From contig FP565575.1 of NCBI GenBank assembly GCA_000091165.1, positions 210,001 through 242,000 of the forward strand: 32,000 nt of DNA, read 5' to 3'. The DNA comes from Candidatus Methylomirabilis oxygeniifera (GTDB lineage: Bacteria > Methylomirabilota > Methylomirabilia > Methylomirabilales > Methylomirabilaceae). Positions 11,635 to 28,523 of the stretch are shown piece by piece. Position numbers and translations under genes: made by a program. The notes under the pieces are model-generated. The model did not search any database, was not told the DNA's origin, and saw nothing but the letters and a program-made list of their open reading frames with translations. How positions within the stretch are numbered: the stretch's first letter is position 1; each line of letters opens with the position of its first letter.

Positions 11635-12801
11635 ATGCAAACCTCAAGAGTGATCGACGTCGATCCGGTTGATCTGTCCGTCCTGATCGTCAACTATAAT
11701 GTGGGCCGATTCGTCCTGGATGCGATAGGTTCGGTCGCGGCACAGCGGTTTGTTGGGCCTGAAGGGCGTCCCGGTCGTCTTGAGATGCTGGTCATCGATA
11801 ATGCGTCACATCCCGCCGATGCAGCCATACTGGATCGCCTGCCCGCCTCCGTCACCGTCATAAAGAACTCAACGAATCTTGGATTCGCGGCTGCCAACAA
11901 TCAGGGGATTGTACGGGCGCAGGGCCGATACCTCTGTTTCTTGAATCCCGATACGAGGCTTCGAGAGGGATCGCTCCAGGCGATGCTTCAGTATCTGTAT
12001 GAGCACCCCGGGGTTGGAATGGTAGGGCCCATGATCTGGGCCGACGATGAGGGGGTGCTGCGTCTGCCGCCCGGTGATCCGCCCTCTCTGTTGTTTCTGT
12101 TGAGCCGGGCTATGGGCGGGGTCTCTCCGAGGTTCAGTCTGTGGCGGCAAAGGCGGTGGCTCCGATCTGCTGTTCGGTTCTGGCGGGCTGAGGCTCCGAT
12201 GGACACTACCATGCTCTCCGGCGCCTGCCTGATGGCATCGCGGCATGTTATCGAGCATGTCGGCCGGTTCGATTCCGGCTTCTTCCTGTACTATGAGGAC
12301 TCCGATCTGTGTCGTCGCATTCGTGGGCAAGGTTATCGCCTGGTGGTCGTGCCTGCCGCTCAGGTCGTCCATTATTATAATCAGAGCGCAAAGACGGACC
12401 CGGCAGGAGCCTGGTGTCACGCCATGGCCTCCGAGCTTCGCTTTGTCAGGATCCATTACGGTCGCACCGGTGCCCTGATATACCGGATCGCTCAAGACAT
12501 AGGTAGGCGTTCAGGACGGGGTCGACAGCCGGTGAACAGGCCGGACGTGATAGATCTCGGCGCGCTGGAGCGGCCACCCCGATTGAGCGTCCCAGGCGCT
12601 GTCGTGCCCGAGAGGGAGCTGCTATGGCAGGTTGGTCCGGATTCCGGATTTGCGCCCTCGGCCGGAGCCCTGCGTGTCGGGAACGGATTCGACTTTAACC
12701 GGATTGTGTGGGAACGTCTGATGCCCGGACGTTATTTCGCCAGGGCCGTCGATCCAAAGACCCTTCGGCCGATGGCATACTGGTCGTGGGTAAAGCGGTA
12801 G
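11635..12801 (+). CDS. Family 2 glycosyltransferase (rhamnosyltransferase-like)
   Basis: LSVLIVNYN...LVIDNAS...NLGFAAANNQG...FLNPDT...GACLMASRHV...FFLYYEDSDLCRR is the classic GT2 (WbbL-like) motif order. Confidence 0.85.
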   Translation: MQTSRVIDVDPVDLSVLIVNYNVGRFVLDAIGSVAAQRFVGPEGRPGRLEMLVIDNASHPADAAILDRLPASVTVIKNSTNLGFAAANNQGIVRAQGRYLCFLNPDTRLREGSLQAMLQYLYEHPGVGMVGPMIWADDEGVLRLPPGDPPSLLFLLSRAMGGVSPRFSLWRQRRWLRSAVRFWRAEAPMDTTMLSGACLMASRHVIEHVGRFDSGFFLYYEDSDLCRRIRGQGYRLVVVPAAQVVHYYNQSAKTDPAGAWCHAMASELRFVRIHYGRTGALIYRIAQDIGRRSGRGRQPVNRPDVIDLGALERPPRLSVPGAVVPERELLWQVGPDSGFAPSAGALRVGNGFDFNRIVWERLMPGRYFARAVDPKTLRPMAYWSWVKR

Positions 12802-14326
12802 ACCGACAGACGGCTGCGATCTGATCCCACGTCAGCGGAGCAATGCGCTGCTCCCTATGGCGCCATTCGAGAATGACGGTCTTGTCGCTGTCCTGGAGCG
12901 CACCGGCGTGGAGGAGGGGACACGGGTCCCCAGGGTGATGCAGGAGACGGACCTCCTGTGGAATGCGCGTAAACGGGGCTGCCGCAGCGATCGGCAGCGC
13001 CCAACTCCCCTGCCCGAAGAGCTGTGCGCCGAAGTGGAGGTCAGGATTACCGATCATGAGGACGGCGCGCACGTCGGATCTGTTCGCGGCTTGTTCGATC
13101 ACCGCAAGGATTGTCCGGTTGATCCGACCTGCCTGGATCCATGGGAGGCTGTTGACGGATAACAGCATAACGGATGACAGCACGACGGCCGATGTCCATA
13201 TACGACGGATGCGTGTTCGACTCTGATTGAGAAGGACACCGAGAAGGAGGCAGAACCCTGCCGATGATAGATAATGGAGTCTGGCAAAATCATCCGGCGC
13301 GCCCCTTGCCGACAGGAGGCTGAGTACCGGGAGCGCCAGGATGATCATCAGGCCGAGGCAATAGAGCGCCTGTCGACGCATGCTCCCCGTGACGGCAACG
13401 ACCGCGACCACAGCGGCCGAGAGCCACTGGAAGATGCCGATAGCTCGCCTTGCCATGATACCGATCACCGGATCACCCGCAGACGTGAGCAGCGATCCCC
13501 CCGGCAACAGTTGATAGAGAAACAGATGAACGAGCCCGAGCGGCATCAGGGAGGGGTCGGAGGGGTTGGTGTCCATGGGGCCATACTGACCGATGAGATG
13601 CCCGGTGAGTACCTTGCGAAGGATGAAGTAGGCCCCCAGCACGATATAATACGGCAGCAGCGACATGGCCGTGGGAGGGGCGGATCGGTCACGGTTCGGA
13701 TACCGAACCATCACCCAATGAAAGGTCAGGACAATAGGAACGATGACGGCAGTTTCCTTTGAAGCAAGAGCAAGGACGAAGGCAAGCAACGATCCCGGAT
13801 AGAGCAACGGCTGTTTGAGGCCGGAAAAGGCAAGATACAGCAGGATCGCCAGGAGCGCAAAGAAGGCCATGATCAGTTCTGTACGGCCGACGAGCCAGTA
13901 GACGGCTTCAGGGTGCAGGGGGTGGAGCGCAAACAAGAGGCCTGCCGTCAATCCGATAGCCGGTGAGGCAATGGGCCGCAGGGCAGCGATACCGTACACA
14001 AGGAGACCGTTGAAGGCGTTCAAAAGCATGTTGGTCAGGTGCGGACCCACCGGGTTGACTCCCCAAAGGCTTATATCGATCCCGCCGGAGAGCGTTACCA
14101 TCGGACGGTAATAGCTGTAGCTCAGGTCGCCGCGATAGACCGTGTAGAAGTCGGACAGTACGTTCTGCCAGTCGACTGAATTCCTGTCGCCGCTGAGGAT
14201 GGTGACGACGTTGAAGTCGTCGGATAGGAAGTAGCCGTACAGGGATGGGGCGTACACGAGAAGACTCACCGCAAGTATCAGCGACAGATCGCAGGCGATT
14301 CTGGAAGGCAGTGGGGATGGATGCAT
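12695..14326 (-). CDS. GT-C superfamily polytopic membrane glycosyltransferase (PMT/TMTC/ArnT-like)
   Basis: AAGGAGG lies 6 nt before ATG 14326. Many hydrophobic helices. The first extracytoplasmic loop carries YFLSDDFNVV, the acidic DD/DE motif characteristic of GT-C enzymes. Soluble C-terminal domain of about 150 aa. Confidence 0.55.
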   Translation of the reverse strand: MHPSPLPSRIACDLSLILAVSLLVYAPSLYGYFLSDDFNVVTILSGDRNSVDWQNVLSDFYTVYRGDLSYSYYRPMVTLSGGIDISLWGVNPVGPHLTNMLLNAFNGLLVYGIAALRPIASPAIGLTAGLLFALHPLHPEAVYWLVGRTELIMAFFALLAILLYLAFSGLKQPLLYPGSLLAFVLALASKETAVIVPIVLTFHWVMVRYPNRDRSAPPTAMSLLPYYIVLGAYFILRKVLTGHLIGQYGPMDTNPSDPSLMPLGLVHLFLYQLLPGGSLLTSAGDPVIGIMARRAIGIFQWLSAAVVAVVAVTGSMRRQALYCLGLMIILALPVLSLLSARGAPDDFARLHYLSSAGFCLLLGVLLNQSRTRIRRIWTSAVVLSSVMLLSVNSLPWIQAGRINRTILAVIEQAANRSDVRAVLMIGNPDLHFGAQLFGQGSWALPIAAAAPFTRIPQEVRLLHHPGDPCPLLHAGALQDSDKTVILEWRHREQRIAPLTWDQIAAVCRSTALPTTSMPSAEGSLDRRPWRNNVRASDVPTQSG

Positions 14327-14437
14327 GTCGGGCCTCCTTGTGCCCCACAGTGAAGGCGATACCATCATAACCGCCATATCAGTATCACGACCCAGGAGAT
14401 GTTGCAATCGTTCTTCAGTCGGTATAGATGCCTTACC

Positions 14438-14467
14438 TTGACGGTTCAAGTCCAAAGCCATTATACT
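14438..14467 (+). promoter_or_regulatory. Sigma70-like promoter of wzm-wzt and downstream genes
   Basis: TTGACG (14438-14443), 18-nt spacer, TATACT (14462-14467). GAGAGGAG lies upstream of ATG 14503. Confidence 0.45.
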
Positions 14468-14502: not shown

Positions 14503-15294
14503 ATGAAGGCGATACGAGCGATCTATCGATACAGAGAGGTGACATTCAGCTTTGTGAAGCGGGATCTGGCGGCTCGCTACAAGGGTTCGACCTTCGGAAT
14601 GCTCTGGTCGATCGTCAATCCTCTCATTATGCTGATCCTTTATACCTTTGTCTTCTCCACGATCCTGAAGGTTCGGGTGGGTGTTCAGGAGGGTACCGGC
14701 AGTTTTGCCGTCTACCTGTTCTGCGGTCTGCTGCCATGGAACGCCTTTGCCGAGCCCCTTGGACGGTCCACGGGGATCGTGTTTGAGCATACCAATCTTA
14801 TCAAGCGAATGGTATTTCCGGTCGAGATCCTTCCTTTATATATTGTCATTTCAAGTATAATCAATCAACTGATAGGTCTGGCCATCCTTTTCCTCGTCCT
14901 GCTTGCGAACGGACATCGGTTCAGTATGCTGATTGCATTCCTGCCGGCGCTTCTCCTTCTCCAGATTACTTTTACCGTTGGATTAGCCTGGATTATAGCC
15001 GGAGCCACTGTCTTTTTGCGCGATATTGCTCAGGTGATCGGAATGATCACGACCCTGTGGCTTTTCCTGACCCCGATATTTTACACGGCTAATCTTGTTC
15101 CTGAGGGATGGCGGCCTTTTCTAGGGTTGAACCCGATGTATGCCGTTGTTGAGTCGTACAGGTCTATTATCCTGAAAGGGCAGTTGCCTGATCCGAGCAG
15201 CCTGATTTACCTTTTTCTCACGGCTGTCATTACCTTTGTTGTCGGCCATCGGATTTTTACTAGGATGCAACCCGCGTTCGCTGATGTGATCTGA
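14503..15294 (+). CDS. wzm: ABC-2 type polysaccharide export permease
   Basis: YRYREVTFSFVKRDLAARYKGSTFGMLWSIVNPL is the typical Wzm/TagG/KpsM N-terminus. Six hydrophobic segments. 263 aa. Confidence 0.85.
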   Translation: MKAIRAIYRYREVTFSFVKRDLAARYKGSTFGMLWSIVNPLIMLILYTFVFSTILKVRVGVQEGTGSFAVYLFCGLLPWNAFAEPLGRSTGIVFEHTNLIKRMVFPVEILPLYIVISSIINQLIGLAILFLVLLANGHRFSMLIAFLPALLLLQITFTVGLAWIIAGATVFLRDIAQVIGMITTLWLFLTPIFYTANLVPEGWRPFLGLNPMYAVVESYRSIILKGQLPDPSSLIYLFLTAVITFVVGHRIFTRMQPAFADVI

Positions 15295-16562
15295 TGTACG
15301 CGATTGAGGTCCATGACCTTTCTAAGGTCTATCGGCTCTACTCGAATCCGAAGGACCGCCTCAAGGAGTATCTCTTCCGGGGCAGGCGGACCTACCACCA
15401 GGCGTTCTGGGCCTTAAGAAATGTGAGTTTCAGGGTTGCACATGGCTCGACGTTAGGCCTTGTCGGCGACAACGGGGCCGGTAAGAGCACGCTGCTTCAA
15501 CTGGTGGCCGGCACTCTGCGGCCCACATCCGGCAGCGTGACGTTGAATGGCCGCGTCTCCACAATCCTGGAACTGGGTGCGGGGTTCAATCCGGAGTTTA
15601 CAGGTCGAGAGAATGTCTTTATGACAGGATCAATCATGGGGATACCACAGCAGGAAATGGAGCGGCGATTCCCGGAGATTGCCGCGTTTGCAGAAATTGG
15701 GGATTTTATTGAACGGCCTGTAAAGCTGTATTCCAGCGGCATGTACGTCCGCCTTGCGTTTGCTGTTGCGACCAGCGTGGACCCCGACATACTGATAGTC
15801 GATGAGGCCCTCTCTGTCGGGGATCAGTACTTTCAGAAGCGCTGCATAGATCGGATCGAAGGTTTCAGGAAGTCCGGTAAGAGCATACTGTTTTGCTCTC
15901 ACAATCTGTACCAGATCAGATTGATCTGCGACGAGGCCGTCTGGCTGAAGGATGGTGAGGTCGCCATGGCCGGAGAGGCCTCCAGGGTTATTGGAGCGTA
16001 TCAGAACTATATGCGGGAGAGGGAGATGCCAAAGGCTTCTCCCGCCACGGTTGAGGTCGGACCAAGGACCTTTCCCTGGGTCTCAGGTGTACGGCTGAGC
16101 TGTGGTGACGAGGAGGGGGATCGGGATGAGTTCGTAACAGGAGACGAACTGGTCGTGACGGTCGCGTACGAGGTGCCTGATCCGCCAAGGGTTGTTCATG
16201 TGGGTGTCGTCATTGTCAGGAACGATTCGGTGCAGGTATTCGGCACCGGCACCCACGTCTCAGGCGTCAAACTCCCACCCCGTTCGAGCAGTTCAAGGAT
16301 ACGTTTTCCGGCACTTCCGCTTCTATCCGGTCAATACGCGATTTCAGTGTTCCTTCTTGATGAGCACGGAATTCACGTCTACGATGAAAAGGAGCGCGAG
16401 TTCAAGTTCCAGGTGACTCAGAATGTGCAGGCCCTGGGTCTGAGCTTCCTGGAACACCGTTGGGACGTGGAGGTCCCGCATGAGGCGAACGGCAAGTGGG
16501 GCTCTGACGATCACGCCGGCAACAAGCAGATAAACAATGCGTTAGGCATCGTCAAAGGATAA
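15294..16562 (+). CDS. wzt: Polysaccharide ABC transporter ATP-binding protein with a C-terminal Wzt_C-like glycan-binding domain
   Basis: Walker A GDNGAGKST, signature YSSGMYVRLAFA, Walker B ILIVDEALSVGD. A C-terminal extension of about 170 aa shows a beta-sandwich pattern (FVTGDELVVTVAY...LLSGQYAISVFL). Its start overlaps the wzm stop by 1 nt (TGATG). Confidence 0.85.
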   Translation: MYAIEVHDLSKVYRLYSNPKDRLKEYLFRGRRTYHQAFWALRNVSFRVAHGSTLGLVGDNGAGKSTLLQLVAGTLRPTSGSVTLNGRVSTILELGAGFNPEFTGRENVFMTGSIMGIPQQEMERRFPEIAAFAEIGDFIERPVKLYSSGMYVRLAFAVATSVDPDILIVDEALSVGDQYFQKRCIDRIEGFRKSGKSILFCSHNLYQIRLICDEAVWLKDGEVAMAGEASRVIGAYQNYMREREMPKASPATVEVGPRTFPWVSGVRLSCGDEEGDRDEFVTGDELVVTVAYEVPDPPRVVHVGVVIVRNDSVQVFGTGTHVSGVKLPPRSSSSRIRFPALPLLSGQYAISVFLLDEHGIHVYDEKEREFKFQVTQNVQALGLSFLEHRWDVEVPHEANGKWGSDDHAGNKQINNALGIVKG

Positions 16563-16643: not shown

Positions 16644-17726
16644 TTGGTAGATATAAATTCATTGTTGACGCCTCCTTACTCTGAGGGAGCGTGTTCATCT
16701 GGGGGCGGTGAGGTGTGCGTATACAAAGATCCTGCCGGACGCTTTACTATCCGCCCATATCAGGCCGGTGACGAACTCCGGATCCTCGATCTGTTCCGGC
16801 GCGTGTTCGGGGTAGAGCGATCGTGTGAGCACTGGCGCTGGAAATTTCGGGATAATCCCGCCGGTTCATACGTGCTGCGCGTGGCTGAGACGCAGGACGG
16901 TAGGCTTGTGGGGCAATATGCCCTATTGCCCGTCCGAACCCGATGGGGTCATGAGACGGTCACCTTTATCCAGGTCATCGATGTGATGGTCGATCCGCAC
17001 TATCGGATGGGATTAAAGCGTCCCGGGCTGTTTTCGGTTCTGGCCGAACAGTCGGTGATGGCATTCCTCCGCGGCGGGCTGGCGTTGATCGGCTACGGGT
17101 TCCCGACACCGGAGGCGTTGCGGATCGGCGCGCGCGCTGTCGGGTATCATCCCCTGCATCCGATTCAGCGGCTGGTAAAAGACCTCACCGTTGCGAGCAG
17201 GCCCCGCTCCTTCCGGCCATGGTCCGTGAGGTGCGAGAGAGTTGCGCGTTTTGGAGATAATGTAGAGATGTTGTGGCGGCGATGCGCCTCCTCCTTTGAC
17301 ATTGCGGTCATACGTGATGCGGAATATCTGAACTGGCGATATGCCGACTGCCCTGATGTTGCATACACGATGGTTGCGGCCGGACAGCCGTGGAGCGGTA
17401 TCCTGTCAGGGGCGGCAGTTCTCCGAATGGGATGGGCGGATCAGCCGATTGCGTGTCTGGCGGATTGGCTTGTTCCGCCTGACGCGACGTCGACGGCCGA
17501 GAGACTGCTGGCTCATTGTGAGGCGTTGGCTCGAGAGGCCGGCATGGAACGGCTCAGCGCCTGGTTTCCTCAACATGCCTGGCCGTATCGCTTTCTCTGC
17601 GAGCATGGGTATCGGGTGGAGCCCACCATATACCACCTGGTGGCCTTGGCCACCGATCCCATGGCCGACCTCGAGCGGGTCAGGGATCGCTGGTACTACA
17701 CAATGGGAGATTCGGATATCTTTTGA
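16644..17726 (+). CDS. Two-domain GNAT-family acyltransferase (start uncertain)
   Basis: IRPYQAGDELRILDLFRRVFG...EHWRWKFRDNP...GRLVGQYALLP...IDVMVDPHYR is the GNAT core pattern. A second C-terminal half of similar size follows. The track start is TTG 16644. Confidence 0.6.
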   Translation: MVDINSLLTPPYSEGACSSGGGEVCVYKDPAGRFTIRPYQAGDELRILDLFRRVFGVERSCEHWRWKFRDNPAGSYVLRVAETQDGRLVGQYALLPVRTRWGHETVTFIQVIDVMVDPHYRMGLKRPGLFSVLAEQSVMAFLRGGLALIGYGFPTPEALRIGARAVGYHPLHPIQRLVKDLTVASRPRSFRPWSVRCERVARFGDNVEMLWRRCASSFDIAVIRDAEYLNWRYADCPDVAYTMVAAGQPWSGILSGAAVLRMGWADQPIACLADWLVPPDATSTAERLLAHCEALAREAGMERLSAWFPQHAWPYRFLCEHGYRVEPTIYHLVALATDPMADLERVRDRWYYTMGDSDIF

Positions 17727-17759
17727 GTGCCATGTGAGGCGTGAGATGCGGAGCGCAGG

Positions 17760-18422
17760 GTGAAGGGGTCGCCGAAGTATCCCCAGATCGTAGCCGGGCC
17801 GCCAAGAGGGTCGGTGTTGGTTTTGGCGCCGCATGCCGACGACGAGAGTTTAGGCTGCGGGGGAGCCATTGCGCTCCACCATCGACAGGGCGATCGGGTG
17901 AAAGTGGTCGTTGCCACCGATGGGGCGGCCGGCGACCCGCTGGGTCATTACCGGGGCTGCAATTATCGGGAGTTGCGTCGTAACGAGGCGAGGCGGGCCG
18001 CATCGATTCTCGGAATCGATGAGATCGAGTTTTGGGACTACCCCGATGGGAAGCTTGCTGAAGTGTCCGATCTGATGACGCGTATCACGGCATTGCTTGC
18101 GGCGGATCGACCGGATGTTCTCTACCGTCCTTCCACGTTGGAGGTGCATCCTGATCACCGGGCTCTCGGAGTCGGCGTTGAAGCGGCCCTCCAGGAGTAT
18201 AGGCCGATATGTGGAGACTTCTGTTATGAGATTTGGGCGACGGTGCAGCCAACCCACGCCATAGACATCACACCTATCTGGGATGTAAAACGCCAAGCCG
18301 TTGAGCAGTATGAAAGCCAGCTCCGCTACAATGACCTTCTCTATATGATGGCCGGTCTGAATGCGTATCGAACCATCTTTGCCCCATGGGCTCGGTACGT
18401 GGAAGCGTTTCAGATAGGGTAG
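17760..18422 (+). CDS. PIG-L/LmbE family N-acetylglucosaminyl deacetylase
   Basis: VLVLAPHADDESLGCGGAI and VHPDHRALG are the PIG-L family zinc-site motifs. GTG start. Confidence 0.8.
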   Translation: MKGSPKYPQIVAGPPRGSVLVLAPHADDESLGCGGAIALHHRQGDRVKVVVATDGAAGDPLGHYRGCNYRELRRNEARRAASILGIDEIEFWDYPDGKLAEVSDLMTRITALLAADRPDVLYRPSTLEVHPDHRALGVGVEAALQEYRPICGDFCYEIWATVQPTHAIDITPIWDVKRQAVEQYESQLRYNDLLYMMAGLNAYRTIFAPWARYVEAFQIG

Positions 18423-18428
18423 AGCCTC

Positions 18429-21400
18429 ATGCGAACCCTCCAGATCGTGCACGGCTTTCCGCCGGAGTCGGTCGCCGGGACCGAGACCTATTGCGAGACC
18501 TTAAGTAGGTATCTTCTGGCGCGAGGGCATCAGTGCGAGGTGCTGACCGGTTCCGGCCGGCGCACAGCAAAGGCTATCCTGGCTGTCGAAGTACAGAACG
18601 GGCTGCGGGTGGCCCGTTATCTGAGAACCGAGGGACAGGCTCAGACCTGGAGAGACGAATACGACCCTGAAGCCGAGGCGCTTATCCGAGATCTGCTCTC
18701 GCGTGACCGGCCGGACCTCGTGCACCTCCACCATTGGCACCGGCTGACCAACAACCTGGTGACGATCTGTACGGACCTGGGCATCCCCGTGGTGGTGACG
18801 TTGCACGATGTCTGGACTACTTGCCCACGTATCCATCGGATCCACCGGGAGGGAGTGTTCTGCAAAGAGCCCCTTCTGACCGCACCGTGTCTACACTGTG
18901 TCGAGCGAACTCAATGGCAGACGGATCAGGAGGTCGTTGCTGCACTGGCATTACGTCAACAGATGGTGGAGGCGGAGCTTTCGCTGGCCTCGGCTCTCAT
19001 CGTACCGTCAGAGGCGCATCGTTCATTGCTGCGTGAGCTGCTTGAGCTTCCGGAGAACCGCTTGATTGTTCTTCCGCATGGGAGTTCCCAGACCATCATC
19101 GCGCAGGATAGGCGGAAGCAACCATCAGCGTTCCGAAATCGACCGCTCCAGATCGGGCATTGGGGTTATTTCCTGTATCATAAAGGTACGCACCTGCTCC
19201 TGGAGGCGCTGCATCGTCTGGACGATCCGTCTGCCGTTCAGGTTCATTTGATCGGAACGGCCTTGGAGTCGGCATATGGGGAACGACTTCGCGATCTTGC
19301 GCGCGGGCTTTCGGTACAATTCCATGGCGCCTATCAGCCCGCCGACCTGCGGACGTTTGACCTTGATCTCGCCGTCTTCCCTTCCATCACCAGTGAATCC
19401 TATTCGTTTACCATTGATGAAGCGTTGTGGTTAGGGCTGCCGGTCCTCGTCTCGGACCGTGGTGCCCTCTCGGAGCGGATCGGGAAGGCAGGCCTGACCT
19501 TTCGGGCTGAGGATGCGGAGGATCTGGCCAGGTGCCTCCAGAGGATCCTGGACGCGCCGGAGGCGCTGGAGGCGATGCGCCTGGACATCCGGCTCGATAC
19601 GCTCTTATCAATGGAGGCCCATGTCGCCGGGTTGGAGAAGATCTATGAGGATGCTGTTTGCTTGAACGTTCCCCGATTAAAAACGTCCACCCCTTATTTG
19701 AAGTTGCTTGCCAATGCAAGGCAACAGATCCAGGAGCGCGACGCGGCGTTATCGGCAGCTCACGCCGAGCGCGACGCGGCGTTATCGGCAGCTCACGCTG
19801 AACTCGCACGAGCCGAGCAGGCCATACAGCAAAAGGACACAGACCTACAACAGGTTCAACGGACCGTCGAGCGTCTTGATGCAGAGGCCCGCCATTATCG
19901 TGAATCGCTGGAAGCTATTGTGTCATCCACGGTGTGGAAGCTCACGGCGCCGATCCGATGGTTGCGCCACCCCATCCGCGCCTTACCCGGCAAAGATCGA
20001 TTCGCGATAGATTTCGCACACCTGAAAGTCACGCTCAGAAAGGCCTATTTCTACCACCGAAAAATAGGTCTTCGGGCGACAGTGCGCAGAATTATCGTCG
20101 AGTTGCGCTCCCTTCACACCAAAGCCAGGGGTCCTGCTCTGTGCTCGTCTGAGTTATTGAATATCCACGATATCTACCCCATGCCCGGAGATATTTCCAG
20201 CCGGATTGCCGTCCACGCCCATGCGTACTACCCTGATTTGACAAAAGAACTCGCGTCGTATCTGAAGAATATGCCCTTCGCGTTTGACCTGTTCGTTTCG
20301 GTCTCGAATGATGAGGCGCGCGATGTCTGTCGTCAGGCATTTGCAGGGCTGCCACAGGCTCGTCGAGTCATTGTGGACGTTGTGGCAAATCGCGGCCGAG
20401 ACATTGCGCCGATGGTATGCCATTTTGGCGGTCGACTGGCAACATACGACTACATCTGCCATCTGCACACGAAGAAATCGATGTATGCGCAGGGAAAAAT
20501 GGATGGTTGGCTGGAGTATCTTCTGCGCCAGTTGATGGGAAGCGAGGATCAGGTTAGGCGGATTTTTTCCATGTTTCAAAGCGATCCAAGAGCCGGGATT
20601 ATTTACCCTCAAAATTACGAGTATCTGCCCTACTGGGGCAATACCTGGCTATCCAATAAAGCGCTGGGCGCCCAAATGTGCCGGCAGATGGGAATCACAG
20701 ATGTGCCGGAAGGGTATTTCGACTACCCTGCAGGGTCAATGTTCTGGGCTCGAAGCGAGGCCATTCGCAATCTTTTCTCGGCCGATATCAGACTGACGGA
20801 CTTTCCCGAAGAGGCTGGTCAGACGGATGGCTCACTGGCGCACTGCATTGAGCGGTTGCTGGTTCTTGTGGCCAGACACGCCGGATATAAGCCGTTTATT
20901 CTTGCCGATCCCTTGTCACCAAGCTGGTCAAAGTGGAGATTCGACCGCTATATGGCCAGAACGCGTGATTATGTTAAAACAGCGTTGGAAGCAAAAGATA
21001 TCAAAGTGATCGCCTTCGATATTTTCGATACACTGCTTGTTCGTCCGGTTCTCCATCCCGAAACCGCAAAGACGATCATTGGCCACCGCAACCGGGAAAT
21101 GGCCGGGACCGATTTTGCCGGGCTACGGGCGAAGGCGGAAGCACTGGCGCGCTCGCGTGTGGGGCGAGACGTGGGGCTTGAAGACATTTATGCTGAGTTT
21201 GCGTCACTGACAGGCAAGCAGGTCGATGAGGTTGGGTATCTCCGGACCCTGGAGGAGGAAATAGAACGACACCTGGTTTCTCCTCGACCTGAGTGTATAG
21301 ATATGTTCAACCATGCGATACGTAGCGGCAAACGTGTCGTTCTTGCGAGTGACATGTTTTTGCCTCGTCCTATTATTGAGAAAATGCTCTCGGAGAACGG

Positions 21401-22811
21401 GATCGCGGGATATCATGCGCTCTATGTGTCCTCGGATATCGGTGTTCGCAAGGATACCGGAGAGTTGTACCGGTTAATGCTGGAACGGGAACGGATTGCC
21501 CCGGACGAACTCCTGATGGTGGGCGATAACGAACACTCTGATGTGCAGGTCCCGATGAATGTCGGAATTCAAGTATGCCACGTGTTGCGGCCGATCGAAG
21601 TTGCCAGGGCATTGCCGAGATTCTCCGGGATGATCGAATGGACTCGAACGGAAGGAGGTCTGGACGAACAGTTGGTATTGGGTCTGGTGATCAAACGACT
21701 GTTTCAGCCGGTCTTTTATGAGCAATTTGATCCTGCCCGTCTGATTCCCGGTGAGCCGGAGGATATTGGCTATGGCGTCGTCGGTCCAGTCGCCCTGAGT
21801 TTCTGTGTATGGTTGATGGACCGGGCAAAAGCGGACGGCATCGAAAAACTGTATTTCCTCGCCCGCGAGGGCCAGTTGCTCAAAGAGATCTACGATCGGG
21901 TCGCGATGCACCGCGAGGATGCCATCCCCTCCGAGTACCTTGTGTTATCCAGGCGCGCCGTCACGGTGCCGATGATCGAGTCGTTCGACGACATTTGCAG
22001 GATCGCCAAAGCCTCCGAGTACTTTCCGAACGACCTGAAGGCATTCTTCAGGTACCGATATGGGGTGCTGTTGGATGATCACGATGTCCATGAACTCTGT
22101 CGGAAGGGGCTCTGGCAGACTGGACGTTTGGTGGAGGTGAAAGGCGATATTCGCCACCTGAAGCCGGTGCTGGAAGCACTCATGGAGAAGATTACGGCCC
22201 GCAGCCGCGCAGAGCGTCCCAGCCTAATCGCCTATTTGAACCGTGTCGGACTCCATACGACGTCGGCGGTGGCGGTTGTCGACGTCGGCTATTCGGCGAC
22301 CATCCAGGGTATGCTGTCCGGGTTCCTGCATAAACCGATTCACGGCTTCTACATGCTCACATCCGCAGCGTCGCGGGAGGTCTGCGAACGGTACGGCGTG
22401 TTCGCGCACGGCTACTACGGGAGTCGGATCGCCGGCGGCGATCCCAACATATCCCCTCTCTGGCGAAGGAGCTTTGAGCTGGAGACCTTTTTGAGCTCCG
22501 ACGACCCCCAAGTCATCTGTTATGATCTGGGCACCGAGGGCCAACCTCATGCGGCGCACCAAAGCCTGTTGCCCGGCGAACAAGGGTCTTCGGACATACG
22601 GCGCAAGATTCGTCGTGGCGTCTCCTCGTTTGTCGACGACTTCCTTGCGCTGCAGCGCAACGTCTATCCGGACCTCAGGTTGTCGTCGCGTCTCCCCGAA
22701 ATGCTGTTCGGGGAGTTTGTCGAGCACATGTCAGGGGCGGAACGGGAGATGATATCGGGTCTCGTCCTGGATGATCACTATTGTGGACGCGGTACGGTTC
22801 CGCTTGGTTGA
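18429..22811 (+). CDS. 1460-aa multidomain glycan synthase: GT4, coiled coil, RgpF-like rhamnan synthesis domain, atypical HAD-like (COG5610-type) module
   Basis: aa 1-410 are GT4 (LQIVHGFPPE..., ESYSFTIDE E-x7-E motif). aa 430-490 are a heptad/hendecad-rich helix. aa about 590-820 are RgpF-like (HAHAYYPDL, NRGRDIAP, HTKKS, GSMFWAR, DGSLAHCIERL). aa about 860-1460 begin FDIFDTLLVRP with GDNEHSDV further on, and are paralogous to 25250-27244. Confidence 0.8.
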   Translation: MRTLQIVHGFPPESVAGTETYCETLSRYLLARGHQCEVLTGSGRRTAKAILAVEVQNGLRVARYLRTEGQAQTWRDEYDPEAEALIRDLLSRDRPDLVHLHHWHRLTNNLVTICTDLGIPVVVTLHDVWTTCPRIHRIHREGVFCKEPLLTAPCLHCVERTQWQTDQEVVAALALRQQMVEAELSLASALIVPSEAHRSLLRELLELPENRLIVLPHGSSQTIIAQDRRKQPSAFRNRPLQIGHWGYFLYHKGTHLLLEALHRLDDPSAVQVHLIGTALESAYGERLRDLARGLSVQFHGAYQPADLRTFDLDLAVFPSITSESYSFTIDEALWLGLPVLVSDRGALSERIGKAGLTFRAEDAEDLARCLQRILDAPEALEAMRLDIRLDTLLSMEAHVAGLEKIYEDAVCLNVPRLKTSTPYLKLLANARQQIQERDAALSAAHAERDAALSAAHAELARAEQAIQQKDTDLQQVQRTVERLDAEARHYRESLEAIVSSTVWKLTAPIRWLRHPIRALPGKDRFAIDFAHLKVTLRKAYFYHRKIGLRATVRRIIVELRSLHTKARGPALCSSELLNIHDIYPMPGDISSRIAVHAHAYYPDLTKELASYLKNMPFAFDLFVSVSNDEARDVCRQAFAGLPQARRVIVDVVANRGRDIAPMVCHFGGRLATYDYICHLHTKKSMYAQGKMDGWLEYLLRQLMGSEDQVRRIFSMFQSDPRAGIIYPQNYEYLPYWGNTWLSNKALGAQMCRQMGITDVPEGYFDYPAGSMFWARSEAIRNLFSADIRLTDFPEEAGQTDGSLAHCIERLLVLVARHAGYKPFILADPLSPSWSKWRFDRYMARTRDYVKTALEAKDIKVIAFDIFDTLLVRPVLHPETAKTIIGHRNREMAGTDFAGLRAKAEALARSRVGRDVGLEDIYAEFASLTGKQVDEVGYLRTLEEEIERHLVSPRPECIDMFNHAIRSGKRVVLASDMFLPRPIIEKMLSENGIAGYHALYVSSDIGVRKDTGELYRLMLERERIAPDELLMVGDNEHSDVQVPMNVGIQVCHVLRPIEVARALPRFSGMIEWTRTEGGLDEQLVLGLVIKRLFQPVFYEQFDPARLIPGEPEDIGYGVVGPVALSFCVWLMDRAKADGIEKLYFLAREGQLLKEIYDRVAMHREDAIPSEYLVLSRRAVTVPMIESFDDICRIAKASEYFPNDLKAFFRYRYGVLLDDHDVHELCRKGLWQTGRLVEVKGDIRHLKPVLEALMEKITARSRAERPSLIAYLNRVGLHTTSAVAVVDVGYSATIQGMLSGFLHKPIHGFYMLTSAASREVCERYGVFAHGYYGSRIAGGDPNISPLWRRSFELETFLSSDDPQVICYDLGTEGQPHAAHQSLLPGEQGSSDIRRKIRRGVSSFVDDFLALQRNVYPDLRLSSRLPEMLFGEFVEHMSGAEREMISGLVLDDHYCGRGTVPLG
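19734..19799 (+). repeat. Tandem 33-bp duplication in the coiled-coil segment (ERDAALSAAHA x2)
   Basis: gagcgcgacgcggcgttatcggcagctcacgcc at 19734-19766 is repeated at 19767-19799 with 32/33 identity. It is in frame. Confidence 0.95.
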
Positions 22812-22838
22812 AGACGGGTCAGCGGGTGACCGTTGAGA

Positions 22839-24149
22839 ATGATGATACAATCTGCTCCCAAAGTCAGCGTGATTGTTCCGCTCTATAATCACGAGTTGTA
22901 TGTAGAGGAAGCACTCCGTTCCGTCCTGGAACAGTCCTTCCGGGATCTTGAGCTCGTCATCGTCAATGACGGCTCAACGGACGGCTCCGAGGCTGTTGTC
23001 GAACGCATCGATGATCGGCGCATACGATACTATAGGCAGGAGAATCGAGGGGCTCATGATGCGTTAAACAGGGGCATCGGCTTGGGCCCGGGGGGCTATA
23101 TTGCCATCCTCAACTCGGATGATCTCTATTACCCGGGACGAATTGCGGACGCGCTGAATATCTTGGAGCGTGATCCTGAGGTCTCAGCAGTCTTCACCTA
23201 CATTGAGCTGATTAACGCGCAGGGTGAGTCGTTAGGGGTCAAACGAGGCGCCGAGGACAACTGGTCCGGGCAAAGCGCTGAGAGCTCGTTTCGAGAGGAG
23301 CACGATACCGTACTTGATCTGCTGGCGGGGAACTTCCTTCATACCACCTCGAATCTGATCTGCCGAAGGGAGGTATTTGATCGAATCGGTCTCTTCGCGA
23401 ATCTCCGCTATACGCATGATTATGAGTTTTGCTTGCGACTCTGCGCGCGGTCCAGAGTCGCCATGATTCAGACCCCGTTGCTCAGGTATCGTTTCCATCA
23501 GTCCAACACGCTGAGCGAGGACGCCGCAGCCTCGCAGTTTGAAACGGGCATGGTTCTTGCGGATTTCTTCCTGACCTACGACGTGGGCAAGATGTTGGGA
23601 GAGGGACCACGGCGGTTTCAAAGGCTCGCTAAACTCTACAACTCGGTGCGAACGTATGAAACCGATCGGATCATCATACTGTTGCTTGTATTGGGCTTCA
23701 AGGGAAATTGGCAGGGCAAATTCTGGGAGGTATTTGCAGCCGATCAACAGAATCCGTTTAGAGAGGCCTGTATAGACAGTTTGACACACACACGCGACCT
23801 TTGTACCGTCAAGGAGACCCTCAGGTGGCAGCAGGGGCAGACGGAGCACTGGTGGGCAAGGGCGGAGGAATTACGGCACGCTCTCGAACAGCGCGAGATC
23901 GCCGTCGCGGAGTTCGATAAGCGGAGCCGAGAATCAGCGGAAGAGCTACGATGCGCGCTCGAACAGCGCGACACCGCTCTAGCGGAGCTTGAGGCGCGAA
24001 GTCGAGAACAGCATGCGCGCATCGAGGAGCTTCGGGCCAAAGAGGCCGTTCTCAACGAGGTTCTTGCGTCCCAGCAATGGAAGTGGCTCCAAAAACTGAA
24101 CAGGGTGCGCTCGGTCGTGCGCCGCGTGCGAGGCATAGGGCAGGCGTGA
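22839..24149 (+). CDS. Family 2 glycosyltransferase with a C-terminal coiled coil
   Basis: VSVIVPLYNHELYVEEALRSVLEQSF..LVIVNDGSTDGS...ILNSDDLY are GT2 motifs. The last 100 aa or so are a charged helical repeat. ATG at 22839 (TTG at 22833 is also possible). Confidence 0.85.
   Translation: MMIQSAPKVSVIVPLYNHELYVEEALRSVLEQSFRDLELVIVNDGSTDGSEAVVERIDDRRIRYYRQENRGAHDALNRGIGLGPGGYIAILNSDDLYYPGRIADALNILERDPEVSAVFTYIELINAQGESLGVKRGAEDNWSGQSAESSFREEHDTVLDLLAGNFLHTTSNLICRREVFDRIGLFANLRYTHDYEFCLRLCARSRVAMIQTPLLRYRFHQSNTLSEDAAASQFETGMVLADFFLTYDVGKMLGEGPRRFQRLAKLYNSVRTYETDRIIILLLVLGFKGNWQGKFWEVFAADQQNPFREACIDSLTHTRDLCTVKETLRWQQGQTEHWWARAEELRHALEQREIAVAEFDKRSRESAEELRCALEQRDTALAELEARSREQHARIEELRAKEAVLNEVLASQQWKWLQKLNRVRSVVRRVRGIGQA
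23862..24011 (+). repeat. Imperfect tandem 75-bp (25-aa) repeat in the coiled-coil tail
   Basis: AEELRHALEQREIAVAEFDKRSRES (23862-23936) and AEELRCALEQRDTALAELEARSREQ (23937-24011). Confidence 0.85.
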
Positions 24150-25249: not shown

Positions 25250-27244
25250 ATGAATGAAAATATCCGTTCACTCGTAGAGCAGGCCGGGCATGTCTCCTTC
25301 GATGTCTTTGATACGGCGGTACTCCGGATCGTCAAAGAACCGGCCGATCTGTTCGATCTCGTTGAGGGGTGGTATAGGGCCACGGTTGGTCCTCTCACGT
25401 CTCGCTTCAGAGCGGTACGGGTCGAATCGGAAAGGTTGGCGAGAGAGCGGGCGTGGACGCGGAGCAGCCGCACCGAGATTACGCTGGACGACATCTACCA
25501 ATGTATGGAAGAGGGGTTCGGTGTGGCGCATGAGACGGCTGTGACGCTCAAGGATCTCGAGGTGGCGGCGGAGCTCAAGGGATGCACGAGGAACGACGAG
25601 ATCTATGCGATCTATCGCTATTGCCTTGATACGATGAGACCCGTTCTGTTCGTCTCAGATATGTATCTGCCATGCGAGGTAGTCCGACAGATCCTGCATC
25701 GGTGCGGCTATGAGCGGTTTCAGTATCTGTTTGTCTCGTCGGCCCTCGGGGCGACTAAGGCCTCAGGGAGCCTATACGAACACATCCTGAAAGAACTCGG
25801 CTGTCACCCTCAAGCAATCCTCCATATCGGAGATCATGACGATTCGGACGTCACCATGGCCCGGCGACACGGCCTGGCGACATACCGTTATGAGAAGTGC
25901 GGGGAAAGGGTGCGGCAGCTTGATCATCACAGACGCCATCGTCTGGAGCGGTGTGCGTCGCTCAGCGAGGGGGAGGGGTGTGTCGAGGCATCGATCTATG
26001 TGGCGACGGTCCTCCGCCGCCTGCTGGTGAACGGGTCGATCCGGCATGAGGGATCGGACGATCCGTTTTGGTACGAGTTCGGCTACATCTCTGCGGGTCC
26101 TCTCTTTTTCGGCTTTATCGGTTGGCTGCTCGCCCGTGCCGTTGAGGATCGGGTGGAGACGCTCTATTTCCTGTCGCGGGATGGACAGATCCTCAAGCGG
26201 GTGTACGATTACGTGTCGCCGTGGGTTGAGCATGCTCCTCCCTCGGAATACCTGTATGCCTCTCGAAGAGCCCTCAATGTACCCGCGATCACCGAACTCG
26301 ATGAGCGGACACTGGATTTCCTGGTCAGCGGAACCAGTATTCTGAGAGTGACCCAGTTCTTGGAGCGACTCGGACTTGACCCAAGCCTCTTCACAGGGGC
26401 TGTTCGAGAAGCCGGTTTCTCGGGCCTGGACCAGCGAGTGCGGACAGGGACCGATTATGTGAGATTGCGGACCCTCTTCAGATCGATCGCCGACGAGATC
26501 AGGCACGTTGCGGTGGGGGAGCGATCCATCCTCCTCGACTATTTCCGTCATGTAGGAATCCTTGAGAAAAAGCGAATCGGCATTGTGGATATCGGTTGGC
26601 ACGGGACCTTGCAAAACTCGATCAGCACGCTCCTCAGTCTGTCAGGGCGAAAGGCGGAAATCAGGGGATATTATCTGGGAACCTTCAGTCCGGCGAGGGC
26701 CATGTGTGAACGAGGGCAGGAGATGGCCGCGTACCTGTGTGAGTATGGTGAGCCGGAGTCTCGCCATGCGATGATCAAACTGTGCGTTGAGCTGTTCGAG
26801 TTTCTCCATCTTGCACCGCATGGGAGCGTGCTCCGGTTTGCTCGTCGTAACGGACATGTGGCGCCGGTACTGGAAGAGAACGACCTCGAAAAACCAAAGA
26901 TGGCAAAGTCCTGCGCTGTGCAGCGAGGCGCGTTGGATTTCGTCAAGGAATTTGGAGCGGTCTGGCAGCAGTTTCGCTTTCTGAACATGTCGCCTGATCT
27001 GGCGCTGCAGCCGTTGATGGAGGTTTTGCGGGATCCGACCGTGACGGAGGCCGTGAGGTTAGGTGATCTGGAGCATGCGGAAGGATTTGGGAATGTCTAT
27101 CAACAGCGATATATCGCCAAGCCTCCCGGAGCGCTGACGGCGTTGATCAATCCTCGAAGTCTAGTCGATCGATATCGGCAAGCCTTCTGGAAGACAGGGT
27201 ATATGAAGCGACTGCGGTCATTTGGTGGACTCGTTGGCGACTGA
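25250..27244 (+). CDS. Free-standing atypical HAD-like (COG5610-type) protein, 664 aa, function unknown
   Basis: SFDVFDTAVLR (D-x-x-D-T rather than D-x-D-x-T), SDMYLP, VSSALGATK, IGDHDDSDV. Colinear with aa 860-1460 of the 18429-22811 product (LYFLSRDGQILKRVYD / LYFLAREGQLLKEIYD; IVDIGWHGTLQ / VVDVGYSATIQ). Confidence 0.7.
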   Translation: MNENIRSLVEQAGHVSFDVFDTAVLRIVKEPADLFDLVEGWYRATVGPLTSRFRAVRVESERLARERAWTRSSRTEITLDDIYQCMEEGFGVAHETAVTLKDLEVAAELKGCTRNDEIYAIYRYCLDTMRPVLFVSDMYLPCEVVRQILHRCGYERFQYLFVSSALGATKASGSLYEHILKELGCHPQAILHIGDHDDSDVTMARRHGLATYRYEKCGERVRQLDHHRRHRLERCASLSEGEGCVEASIYVATVLRRLLVNGSIRHEGSDDPFWYEFGYISAGPLFFGFIGWLLARAVEDRVETLYFLSRDGQILKRVYDYVSPWVEHAPPSEYLYASRRALNVPAITELDERTLDFLVSGTSILRVTQFLERLGLDPSLFTGAVREAGFSGLDQRVRTGTDYVRLRTLFRSIADEIRHVAVGERSILLDYFRHVGILEKKRIGIVDIGWHGTLQNSISTLLSLSGRKAEIRGYYLGTFSPARAMCERGQEMAAYLCEYGEPESRHAMIKLCVELFEFLHLAPHGSVLRFARRNGHVAPVLEENDLEKPKMAKSCAVQRGALDFVKEFGAVWQQFRFLNMSPDLALQPLMEVLRDPTVTEAVRLGDLEHAEGFGNVYQQRYIAKPPGALTALINPRSLVDRYRQAFWKTGYMKRLRSFGGLVGD

Positions 27245-27337: not shown

Positions 27338-28204
27338 ATGACGACGCTCCTGATCGGTGCCAATGGACAGTTGGGAAGCGAGTTGCGGCAGGCGTTCAGC
27401 GATGGTGATCTGGTGCCGCTGACGCATGCCGAGTTCGAACTGGCTGACCGGACGCAGGTGTGGGATATGTTGCGCAAGTATAGTCCACACCTCATCCTCA
27501 ATACCGCCGCCTATCATCGTGTCGATGAGTGCGAGGACTTCCCTGAGCGCGCATTTGCCGTCAACGCGATTGCGGTGAGGAATCTCGCCATCGCCACGAA
27601 GGAGATTGGGGCGACGCTCGTTCACTTCAGCACTGACTACGTCTTTGACGGACGAATGCGCACCCCGTACCGGGAAGCGGACCAGCCTCGGCCGCTGAGC
27701 GTCTACGCGACCTCGAAGCGTGCCGGCGAGTACTTCGTCCAGGCAATCCTTGAGCGGTATTACCTTATCCGAACCTGCGGGCTATACGGCGTGGCAGGCC
27801 GCTGCAACAAGACGGGAAATTTTGTCGAAACGATGCTTCGACTGGCAGCGGCCGGGCGTAAGATCGATGTGGTGGGAGATCAGATTGTTACCCCGACAAG
27901 CGCCAAGGAATTGGCGCATAAGGTCCGACGGTTAGTAGAAACCGACGCCTACGGGCTCTATCACATTACCAACAACGGCGAATGCTCCTGGTATCAGTTT
28001 GCCGGGGCAGTGTTTGAACTGTCCGGTGTCCAGGCCCATCTACATGAAACAACCAGCGCCGCCTTCGGCGCGCGCGCCGTCAGGCCGGCCTATTCGGTCC
28101 TGGAGAACGCGAATCTTCGCTCGCTCGGTCTCGATGATCTGCGGCACTGGCGCGACGCCCTTTCAGAGTATCTGACTGAACGCGGGCGGTTGCAAGCGGT
28201 CTGA
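27338..28204 (+). CDS. rfbD: dTDP-4-dehydrorhamnose reductase
   Basis: LLIGANGQLGSEL, NTAAYHRVDECE, FSTDYVFDG, YATSKRAGE (Y-x3-K). The length and motif order match RmlD. Confidence 0.85.
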   Translation: MTTLLIGANGQLGSELRQAFSDGDLVPLTHAEFELADRTQVWDMLRKYSPHLILNTAAYHRVDECEDFPERAFAVNAIAVRNLAIATKEIGATLVHFSTDYVFDGRMRTPYREADQPRPLSVYATSKRAGEYFVQAILERYYLIRTCGLYGVAGRCNKTGNFVETMLRLAAAGRKIDVVGDQIVTPTSAKELAHKVRRLVETDAYGLYHITNNGECSWYQFAGAVFELSGVQAHLHETTSAAFGARAVRPAYSVLENANLRSLGLDDLRHWRDALSEYLTERGRLQAV

Positions 28205-28274: not shown

Positions 28275-28523
28275 ATGAGGACAACAATTGAGCTGACCGA
28301 CGACCAGCGGGCAAGACTTCTTGCGCTGGCAGCGAAACGACGGCTTCGTGGTTACTCGGTCTTGATTCACGAAGCCCTCGAACGGTACCTCGAAGAGACG
28401 CCGAACGGGGGGCGGGCGAGGGCAGCGGCCAGGGCTGCGCGGAAGGTGCGGGGCACGCTTTCGGAGAATGAGGCCGAACGGATGCGACAACGGATCGCGG
28501 AGCTGTGGAAGCGGTGGCGATAA
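28275..28523 (+). CDS. vapB: Ribbon-helix-helix type antitoxin
   Basis: MRTTIELTDDQRARLLALAAKRRLRGYSVLIHEALERYL is a CopG/RHH-like N-terminus. 82 aa. It overlaps the downstream PIN gene. Confidence 0.65.
   Translation: MRTTIELTDDQRARLLALAAKRRLRGYSVLIHEALERYLEETPNGGRARAAARAARKVRGTLSENEAERMRQRIAELWKRWR

Follow-up and report, generated by a model that had tools for sequence, protein, structure and literature searches.

A 32,000-nucleotide stretch of the genome of Candidatus Methylomirabilis oxygeniifera, a methane oxidiser (contig FP565575.1, positions 210,001 to 242,000; hereafter the window, in whose coordinates all positions are given, with features on the forward strand unless stated otherwise) contains a single unbroken open reading frame (ORF; 18429-22811) for a protein of 1460 amino acids (aa). 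As far as can be read from its sequence, this protein has four intact catalytic domains, in the order GT4, a coiled coil of 85 aa, RgpF, phosphoribose phosphatase (PRP), and glycan phosphoribosyltransferase (gPRT), and its last 950 aa correspond in full to an RgpF-ribofuranosyltransferase unit that is widespread. On balance, the protein appears to be a combined terminator, ruler, and polymerase working with the adjacent ABC exporter Wzm/Wzt, in which the RgpF-ribofuranosyltransferase unit would polymerise and the N-terminal GT4 domain would cap. The product is probably an O-antigen-like polysaccharide.

Domain layout and the C-terminal ribofuranosyltransferase

The ORF starts with an ATG 6 nt past the stop codon of an upstream PIG-L gene, and its translation is a 100% match to CBE67353.1 of Candidatus Methylomirabilis oxyfera, a record labelled merely 'glycosyltransferase'. 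Since full-length orthologues (1456-1474 aa, 66-78% identity) are found in independent metagenome assemblies, a frameshift or mis-assembly, by which the ORF would really be several genes, is ruled out. An initial annotation, made from the letters of the window, had read the domain order from the translation. This order was borne out by Pfam, which placed GT4 at aa 16-383 (E 8e-18), RgpF at 590-820 (E 8.4e-53), and HAD at 858-1056 (E 4.5e-10), and all the motifs quoted in that annotation are present: E-x7-E of GT4 (E323-E331), NRGRDIAP (654-661), HTKKS (680-684), GSMFWAR (769-775), AHCIERL (804-810), and FDIFDTLLVRP (863-873).

The C-terminal 600 aa had been taken for one uncharacterised HAD-like module. 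Judging from sequence comparison and a structural model, they are instead a dual-domain ribofuranosyltransferase that uses phosphoribosyl pyrophosphate (PRPP) and is homologous over its whole length to PDB entry 7SHG ('ribofuranosyl transferase') and to the CrpP and CriT parts of Bcs3 from Haemophilus influenzae type b (Hib). This dual-domain family was described in 2022-2023, and its N-terminal HAD-type phosphatase (PRP, or CrpP) takes off the 5-phosphate (PMC11294581; PMC10299916; PMC11231755). In the 1460-aa protein, the predicted HAD-type phosphoribose 5-phosphatase PRP covers 21000-21608 (aa 858-1060; the Pfam Hydrolase match given above), and the predicted PRPP-dependent gPRT covers 21615-22808 (aa 1063-1460), as placed by profile alignment to 7SHG. 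A phmmer search of PDB with the single sequence gave 7SHG at E 1.2e-20 and Bcs3 at E 4.7e-18, and a profile from 100 homologues gave the same two at E 9.5e-57 and 6.6e-49, respectively, in matches that span both PRP and gPRT. The phosphatase part is aligned with residues 25-257 and the transferase part with residues 298-623 of the 648 residues of 7SHG; gPRT alone matches 298-623 with a domain E of 5e-25, and Bcs3 is aligned up to residue 820. The AlphaFold2 (AF2) model of aa 848-1460 has a pLDDT of 96.5 and a pTM of 0.94, and its Foldseek matches in PDB are headed by 7SHG (E 2.2e-23) and the Bcs3 structures 8A0C/8A0M (E ~1e-21, query TM score 0.54-0.58), after which come isolated HAD domains only, at E >= 4e-6.

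The catalytic residues of both domains are also kept. Motif I of PRP, FDIFDT (863-868), is identical in Bcs3 CrpP and 7SHG, with D864 corresponding to D386 of Bcs3, and the nucleophilic Asp of this motif (D386 in Bcs3, D14 in STM0726) is important by mutation (PMC10299916; PMC11294581). The motif was correctly called unusual in the initial annotation, having the form D-x-x-D-T versus D-x-D-x-T, which is a family trait of these phosphatases. In HAD motifs II-IV, S974/D975, K1008, and D1033/D1038 are invariant across the 100 homologues. The predicted catalytic acids of gPRT, E1147 and D1285, align with D680 and E818 of CriT, and 7SHG has the same E/D pair as the 1460-aa protein. In Bcs3, D386 of CrpP and both D680 and E818 of CriT matter by mutation (PMC10299916).

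RgpF, its partner, and the direction of the protein

The domain ahead of PRP is an RgpF-like (PF05045) glycosyltransferase of the GT-A type (20196-20963, aa 590-845). Its Pfam match reaches 180 bits against a cut-off of 25 and covers model positions 269-503 of 503 only, a second half that forms a unit of ~300 aa and is common as a stand-alone protein. In an alignment of 112 sequences, the 1460-aa protein keeps nine of nine invariant columns (N654, G656, R657, H680, K682, W694, M771, F792, and E795) and 26 of 26 near-invariant ones, and the AF2 pLDDT is >90 across the domain. Foldseek found no close solved structure for it, only distant GT-A enzymes (K4CP, ArnC, and WrtF; TM ~0.35), so that donor and linkage are not inferable from structure. 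Streptococcal RgpF is a rhamnan-elongating rhamnosyltransferase (PMC9574508), and by this analogy the domain is a candidate L-rhamnosyltransferase polymerase module, with dTDP-rhamnose (dTDP-Rha) as the likely donor. RmlD, the dTDP-4-dehydrorhamnose reductase for dTDP-L-rhamnose supply, is encoded downstream (27338-28204; Pfam RmlD_sub_bind E 5.2e-86).

RgpF and the ribofuranosyltransferase form a recurrent pair. A search with the C-terminal module found RgpF followed by PRP and gPRT in >100 protein clusters (940-1060 aa), whose members come from many Proteobacteria and from Chloroflexi and other groups. The spacing from RgpF to the HAD motif, 209 aa in the 1460-aa protein, equals the median of 43 fusions, and no coiled coil lies between the two enzymes. 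One stand-alone RgpF-ribofuranosyltransferase, P0162, opens with the basic helix 'LKVLAATAYWYYRRWGFKATVRRVLAEFR', to be compared with 'LKVTLRKAYFYHRKIGLRATVRRIIVELR' after the coiled coil in the 1460-aa protein. As the stand-alone proteins share this basic starting helix, the 1460-aa protein can be divided into a GT4 - coiled coil - junction part and a complete RgpF-ribofuranosyltransferase.

A scan of species-representative genomes with the C-terminal module found relatives in at least 583 genomes, and the best 80 loci were analysed. The pair is encoded alone in 22 of the 80; in another 32, at least 250 aa precede it within proteins of 1223-1646 aa, and 20 of these 32 long proteins have the junction pattern W-x-x-T-x-P-L-R. 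Ten proteins of the layout X-CC-RgpF-RibfGT (X, N-terminal enzyme; CC, coiled coil; RibfGT, ribofuranosyltransferase) carry as X a GT2 (four proteins), PIG-L plus GT2 (Nitrosomonas and Crenothrix), GT4 (Azohydromonas), Methyltransf_24 (Smithella), Sulfotransfer_3 (Pseudomonas), or radical-SAM plus GT2 (an acidobacterium). A GT4 of the Methylomirabilis type was seen on RgpF-RibfGT solely in Methylomirabilota relatives, the GT4 of Azohydromonas being distant.

One case that bears on the direction of these proteins is that of Serratia marcescens. MBX9287592.1 (1310 aa), deposited as 'class I SAM-dependent methyltransferase', consists of Methyltransf_24 (41-157), a coiled coil, the junction 'RSWIITKPLR', RgpF (420-671), and PRP plus gPRT, and is 42% identical to the 1460-aa protein across 865 aa. 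Its locus (L012; GCA_036452385.1, 6295-15380) is a minimal O-antigen locus between rml genes and gnd/his, with only rmlC, rmlD, wzm, wzt including Wzt_C, the gene for the 1310-aa protein, and two small GT2 genes. With so few genes, the RgpF-RibfGT pair is the sole candidate for the repeat-unit polymerase there, and by analogy the methyltransferase of the 1310-aa protein occupies the terminator slot. In characterised systems, known terminators are N-terminal and distal to the coiled coil, and the polymerase end of WbbB and of ORF6(O7) is the C-terminus (PMC11231755). The variable slot before the coiled coil would thus be the seat of modifying or terminating enzymes, and in the 1460-aa protein this slot is held by GT4.

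The initial annotation had assigned the roles the other way round: GT4 and/or RgpF would polymerise, and the C-terminal module, in the position of a terminator, would cap the chain with ribofuranose. This model agrees with the place of the module at the opposite end of the polypeptide, far from GT4, and with a second, stand-alone ribofuranosyltransferase in the cluster, as one copy could polymerise and the other cap. It is nonetheless highly improbable for several reasons. First, neither a coiled coil nor a long linker separates the module from RgpF, and the spacing is that of the stand-alone fusions. Second, the two form a conserved pair that occurs alone and has no competitor for polymerisation in the Serratia locus. 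Third, the characterised ribofuranosyltransferases, those of Klebsiella pneumoniae O4/O7, Hib, and the Salmonella T1 antigen, are repeat-unit enzymes (PMC11231755; PMC10299916; PMC11294581), and for O7 it was shown biochemically that the ribofuranosyltransferase and rhamnosyltransferases polymerise an O-antigen of rhamnose (Rha) and ribofuranose (Ribf) (PMC11231755). Fourth, the C-terminus is not where known terminators stand. The absence of a coiled coil within the pair, the conservation of the lone pair, and the exchangeable N-terminal enzyme therefore place the terminator slot at the N-terminal GT4. What stands of the initial proposal is its coiled-coil logic, with Wzm and Wzt_C as neighbours and a coiled coil between modules; its assignment of the two ends is probably inverted.

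The stand-alone enzyme (664 aa; 25250-27244) starts 2.4 kb downstream of the gene for the 1460-aa protein and is a paralogue of its C-terminal module (28% identity to aa 848-1460, E 2e-49), matching Bcs3 at E 1.8e-29 and 7SHG at E 1.6e-18 in PDB. Its possible products are a further Ribf linkage, a side chain, an adaptor, or another glycan domain.

The fairly secure part of the proposed mechanism is that the RgpF-ribofuranosyltransferase unit acts as the repeat-unit polymerase. RgpF would add a sugar, most likely L-rhamnose from dTDP-Rha, gPRT would pass ribose-5-phosphate from PRPP onto this sugar, and PRP would strip the 5-phosphate to let the next sugar be added, giving a backbone with Rha and beta-Ribf.

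The GT4 end and the candidate cap

The GT4 domain (18429-19664, aa 1-412), of the GT-B fold and retaining type, is a candidate chain-terminating (capping) transferase. It matches Glyco_transf_4 (E 8e-18) and Glycos_transf_1 (E 1.3e-12) in Pfam, its best solved relative is MshA (7QSG, E 3.2e-5), and E323-x7-E331, K252, and C132/C145/C154/C157 are invariant in 24 GT4 relatives. The four invariant Cys (18822-18899, aa 132-157) are in the N-terminal Rossmann domain and are not a general GT4 trait; their arrangement suggests a zinc-binding insertion. The domain is 62-83% identical in proteins with unrelated C-terminal modules. Including the coiled coil, aa 1-510 are 54-65% identical to the N-termini of giant proteins that continue with GT2 plus GT4, two GT2 plus others, or a methyltransferase.

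The helical segment that follows, initially estimated at ~60 aa, is a predicted coiled-coil spacer of ~85 residues (19695-19949, aa 423-507), ~12.5 nm long if one continuous helix. It is free of Pro and Gly and heptad-compatible, with a hydrophobic fraction of 0.75-0.88 at a/d positions, and its matches to coiled-coil/SMC families are weak (423-506). Spacer length differs among orthologues, in which the junction Trp stands at 499-517. A perfect 33-bp tandem duplication within the coiled coil (19734-19798; 2.0 copies, 100% match) gives ERDAALSAAHA twice (aa 436-457). Since an insertion of 11 residues holds the approximate register of a coiled coil, this duplication may have altered the length of the ruler recently. 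Next come the junction S-x-x-W-K-L-T-A-P-I-R (aa 500-510), a strongly basic linker, and a pair of helices (aa 529-566), together at 19926-20126. The pattern W-x-x-T-x-P-(L/I)-R is common to GT4-CC proteins with other C-termini, the Serratia protein, and many of the species-representative loci. The linker, with a net charge of +4 to +6 per 18-mer, may be membrane-associated, and the AF2 model shows the helices with modest pLDDT.

Upstream of the 1460-aa protein, an ABC exporter (14503-16562) is encoded by wzm (14503-15294; Pfam ABC2_membrane) and wzt (15294-16562; ABC_tran and Wzt_C, E 1.1e-12), the latter with a C-terminal glycan-binding domain (carbohydrate-binding module, CBM). It is followed by candidate genes for cap processing (16644-18422), a GNAT acyltransferase (16644-17726; Acetyltransf_9) and the PIG-L family de-N-acetylase (17760-18422). 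The best NCBIfam match of the latter is BshB1 (E 2.8e-22, under the family cut-off), and the GNAT protein has no match in PDB or NCBIfam. Two related loci, L001 and L003, keep the order Wzm-Wzt-GNAT-PIG-L-GT4/CC, and L004 and L007 have these genes with others inserted. Despite this common set, the big proteins of L003, L004, and L007 end in unrelated modules. Identity to the window is 78% for GT4, 67% for PIG-L, 58% for GNAT, 79% for the nucleotide-binding domain (NBD) of Wzt, and 55% for its CBM in L003, and 62, 64, 46, 75, and 54%, respectively, in L004, with only ~100 aa of the big protein aligning outside GT4 in the two loci.

The glycan-binding domain goes with the candidate cap genes rather than with the polymerase. 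In loci with the same GT4 and a different polymerase, the Wzt CBM is 53-65% identical, and it is still recognisable (32%, E 2e-10) in a locus whose GT4 is 41% identical and whose NBD is at a distance similar to that of Serratia. The Serratia Wzt, which shares the polymerase and not the GT4 with the window, has a 51% identical NBD and an essentially unrelated CBM (E 0.023). Of 29 species-representative loci that encode a Wzt, a window-like CBM is present in 10, and PIG-L and GNAT occur together in 8 of these 10 and in 0 of the other 19 (Fisher p 1e-5); the test ignores kinship, and six of the eight positive loci are from Nitrosomonas. PIG-L is moreover fused N-terminally, distal to the coiled coil, in the GT2-CC-RgpF-RibfGT proteins of Nitrosomonas and Crenothrix. 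Together, GT4, PIG-L, and GNAT with a co-varying CBM suggest an amino-sugar cap.

Side observations on these fusions concern individual loci. The proteins of Nitrosomonas (L016, 4196-7045) and Crenothrix (L039, 4151-7015) have the order PIG-L - GT2 - coiled coil - RgpF - PRP - gPRT in ~1550 aa. A Wzt with window-like CBM and a GNAT are encoded upstream in both, as is Wzm in L016, the stretch of L039 beginning inside wzt. The gene set is that of the window, with PIG-L fused and GT2 in place of GT4. Two other loci (L005 and L010; P0017 and P0026) have GT4 at both ends of a predicted coiled coil of ~350-400 aa and adjoining PIG-L genes, with no Wzm/Wzt within 8-10 kb; the records of P0026 and P0021 are labelled Planctomycetota.

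In the less secure part of the proposed mechanism, the coiled coil would keep the N-terminal GT4 ~12 nm from the polymerase, and GT4 would add a terminating residue when the chain reaches it. PIG-L and GNAT might then convert this residue from N-acetylhexosamine (HexNAc) through hexosamine to N-acyl-hexosamine, and the Wzt glycan-binding domain would read the finished cap for export. A more specific proposal, offered tentatively, is that a glycosyltransferase (GT; GT4 here, GT2 in Nitrosomonas and Crenothrix), PIG-L, and GNAT constitute an undescribed terminating system with a re-acylated amino-sugar cap and a dedicated clade of Wzt CBM. It would be a portable cassette, joined to different polymerases at the conserved S-x-x-W-x-x-T-x-P-(L/I)-R junction behind the coiled coil in several phyla, and on this proposal the 33-bp duplication in the ruler would be a recent alteration of chain length.

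The same three enzymes could act at the start of the chain. E. coli O9a has GT4 enzymes as its adaptor GTs. If GT4, PIG-L, and GNAT built a reducing-end adaptor or primer, or a separate glycoconjugate of the mycothiol/bacillithiol type, the fusion would co-localise early and late steps, the conservation of these genes across loci with different polymerases would be explained, and the best matches of PIG-L, bacillithiol deacetylases, would fit. This alternative is improbable, as it leaves unexplained both the co-variation of the Wzt glycan-binding domain and the position of the GT (in Nitrosomonas, PIG-L too) beyond the coiled coil, in the slot of methyl- and sulfotransferases. What the CBM of characterised systems binds is the cap at the non-reducing terminus (PMC11231755).

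Another candidate for the terminator is encoded immediately downstream of the 1460-aa protein. The product of 22833-24149 (438 aa; Pfam GT2), a possible partner or alternative terminator, carries at its C-terminus a coiled coil of ~100 aa, in which the unit AEELR-x-ALEQR recurs, and then a basic amphipathic tail ending SQQWKWLQKLNRVRSVVRRVRG. Its identity to the N-terminal GT2 of the X-CC-RgpF-RibfGT proteins from Selenomonadales is 30-32% (E 1e-28 to 5e-32). This GT2-CC protein could be a terminator, or a partner docking via its coiled coil. GT4 enzymes are common as polymerase and adaptor modules, for example WbdA/B/C, and GT4 could accordingly be a third polymerase module for a repeat of at least three sugars, with the coiled coil as scaffold. 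The terminator would then be, most likely, GT2-CC, or else the methyltransferase of 9987-11150. The presence of a related GT2-CC in L003 and the format of enzyme, coiled coil, and basic tail, as in ORF7 of K. pneumoniae O4 (PMC11231755), speak for such an arrangement. It is rather unlikely all the same, because GT4 is 62-78% identical where the other GT modules are swapped, which is unexpected for a repeat-specific module, because CBM type follows GT4/PIG-L/GNAT and not the polymerase, and because the methyltransferase is not conserved among related loci.

Several observations weigh against GT4 as the terminator of a Rha/Ribf polymer. GT2-CC has the format of the stand-alone O4 terminator and, being homologous to the N-terminal GT2 of X-CC-RgpF-RibfGT proteins, could be the terminator instead, and the conserved GT4/PIG-L/GNAT set could equally build a reducing-end adaptor. 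Where GT4 identity falls to 33-43%, only part of the cassette is found. The likeness of GT4 to MshA/BshA is weak and insufficient to assign a UDP-GlcNAc donor. The coiled coil is short at ~85 aa, presumably shorter than that of WbdD. Finally, no Rha/Ribf surface glycan has been reported for Methylomirabilis. As to the product, S-layer glycosylation was considered and rejected, since the S-layer protein of the sister species M. lanthanidiphila has no detectable glycans (PMC8671808); a lipopolysaccharide O-antigen is therefore likelier.

The remaining genes of the cluster include a GT2 of 388 aa (11635-12801; Pfam GT2), a candidate adaptor or early-step transferase conserved with the cassette, with 50% (L003) and 42% (L004) identity to GT2 genes at the same relative position. 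The class I methyltransferase (9987-11150) is extended at its N-terminus by ~180 aa, which show a faint GT2-like match (MftF, aa 48-140). No conserved counterpart is present in L001, L003, and L004, where the S-adenosylmethionine-binding segment alone aligns, and the enzyme was therefore ranked low as a terminator. An ORF of 588 aa on the reverse strand (12695-14461) shares ~100 nt with the 3' end of the GT2 at 11635-12801. Pfam gives no match for it, and its similarity to the family of Agl23 flippase-associated membrane proteins is weak (E 0.0036); the product may be a membrane protein of GT-C-like type, or the ORF may not be a gene. Between rmlD and the next GT2 gene, the cluster holds an inserted toxin-antitoxin pair of a VapB-like protein (28275-28523, 82 aa, with a ribbon-helix-helix-like N-terminus) and VapC (28505-28924, 139 aa; NCBIfam E 1.5e-17).

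Significance and relation to known systems

New leads lie in the particular domain combination, in how widely the X-CC-RgpF-RibfGT class extends, and in the candidate amino-sugar cap. The initial annotation had recognised no known description of the combination, which holds for this particular one and not for its architecture class or its catalytic families, every one of which is known. A literature search found no published description of an RgpF-RibfGT fusion or a GT/PIG-L/GNAT cassette, although an earlier description is possible, and nothing relevant linking RgpF with GT102 or ribofuranose. Known mechanism is not overturned; the modular swapping and the co-variation of the CBM are useful to specialists rather than startling. 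PRPP-dependent ribofuranosyltransferases are very often built into giant coiled-coil proteins beside an RgpF-type transferase, and the enzyme in the putative N-terminal terminator slot is freely exchanged among methyl-, sulfo-, and glycosyltransferases and PIG-L. Many unannotated O-antigen-like loci can be read by this simple rule, and the Serratia locus would be a tractable model of the whole protein class. GT, PIG-L, and GNAT are a candidate new capping chemistry, to which a class of Wzt glycan-binding domains corresponds, and for Methylomirabilis a surface polysaccharide with Rha/Ribf is predicted.

In overall plan, the closest known system is WbbB of K. pneumoniae O12 and Raoultella terrigena, likewise one polypeptide with an N-terminal GT, a coiled coil, and C-terminal polymerase GTs, encoded beside Wzm and a Wzt with glycan-binding domain and following the logic of a ruler (PMC11231755). 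The catalytic domains differ, being GT99/GT102/GT103 in WbbB versus GT4/RgpF/PRP plus gPRT here, where one donor is predicted to be PRPP instead of a nucleotide sugar. PDB sequence searches with the whole protein or GT4 found no homology to the catalytic domains of WbdD or WbbB; ORF6-O7 and ORF7-O4 have no solved structure (PMC11231755), and such a search effectively covers WbdD and WbbB. By sequence, the likeness to WbdD and WbbB is thus architectural and not a descent of catalytic modules.

In chemistry, ORF6 and ORF7 of K. pneumoniae O7 come nearest. They make a Rha/Ribf polymer with rhamnosyltransferase modules and a PRPP-dependent dual-domain ribofuranosyltransferase, and in the coiled-coil protein ORF6(O7) the terminator is N-terminal and the rhamnosyltransferases are C-terminal (PMC11231755). 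Whereas O7 has a separate ribofuranosyltransferase, GT2 rhamnosyltransferases, and a methyltransferase-kinase terminator, the corresponding functions here would be fused, RgpF-type, and taken by GT4, respectively. The C-terminal module itself shares PRP plus gPRT, FDIFDT, and the fold with 7SHG of Thermobacillus composti, ORF5(O4)/ORF7(O7), and Salmonella STM0726 (PMC11294581; PMC11231755), which are stand-alone enzymes of ~650 aa, unlike the C-terminal part of a 1460-aa protein. A fusion of a ribofuranosyltransferase has been called possible in principle, with Bcs3 as the one example cited (PMC11231755). Bcs3 (8A0C) also has its CrpP plus CriT ribofuranosyltransferase inside a multi-enzyme polymerase, with D386/D680/E818 corresponding to D864/E1147/D1285, but its partner is a TagF-like ribitol-phosphate transferase, and it has no coiled coil, terminator, or CBM-dependent export.

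For the putative capping end, the nearest parallels are MshA/MshB/MshD and BshA/BshB, in which a GT4 HexNAc transferase, a PIG-L family de-N-acetylase, and GNAT are also encoded together. The similarities to these are far under family cut-offs and the context here is polysaccharide export instead of thiol biosynthesis, so that the analogy is one of logic only. Similar as whole proteins are the Serratia MBX9287592.1 and those of, among others, Nitrosomonas, Pseudomonas, Rhodoferax, and Selenomonadales, which share the junction motif, the coiled coil, RgpF-PRP-gPRT, and wzm/wzt with CBM, and differ in carrying an N-terminal methyltransferase, sulfotransferase, GT2, or PIG-L plus GT2 where the Methylomirabilis protein has GT4.

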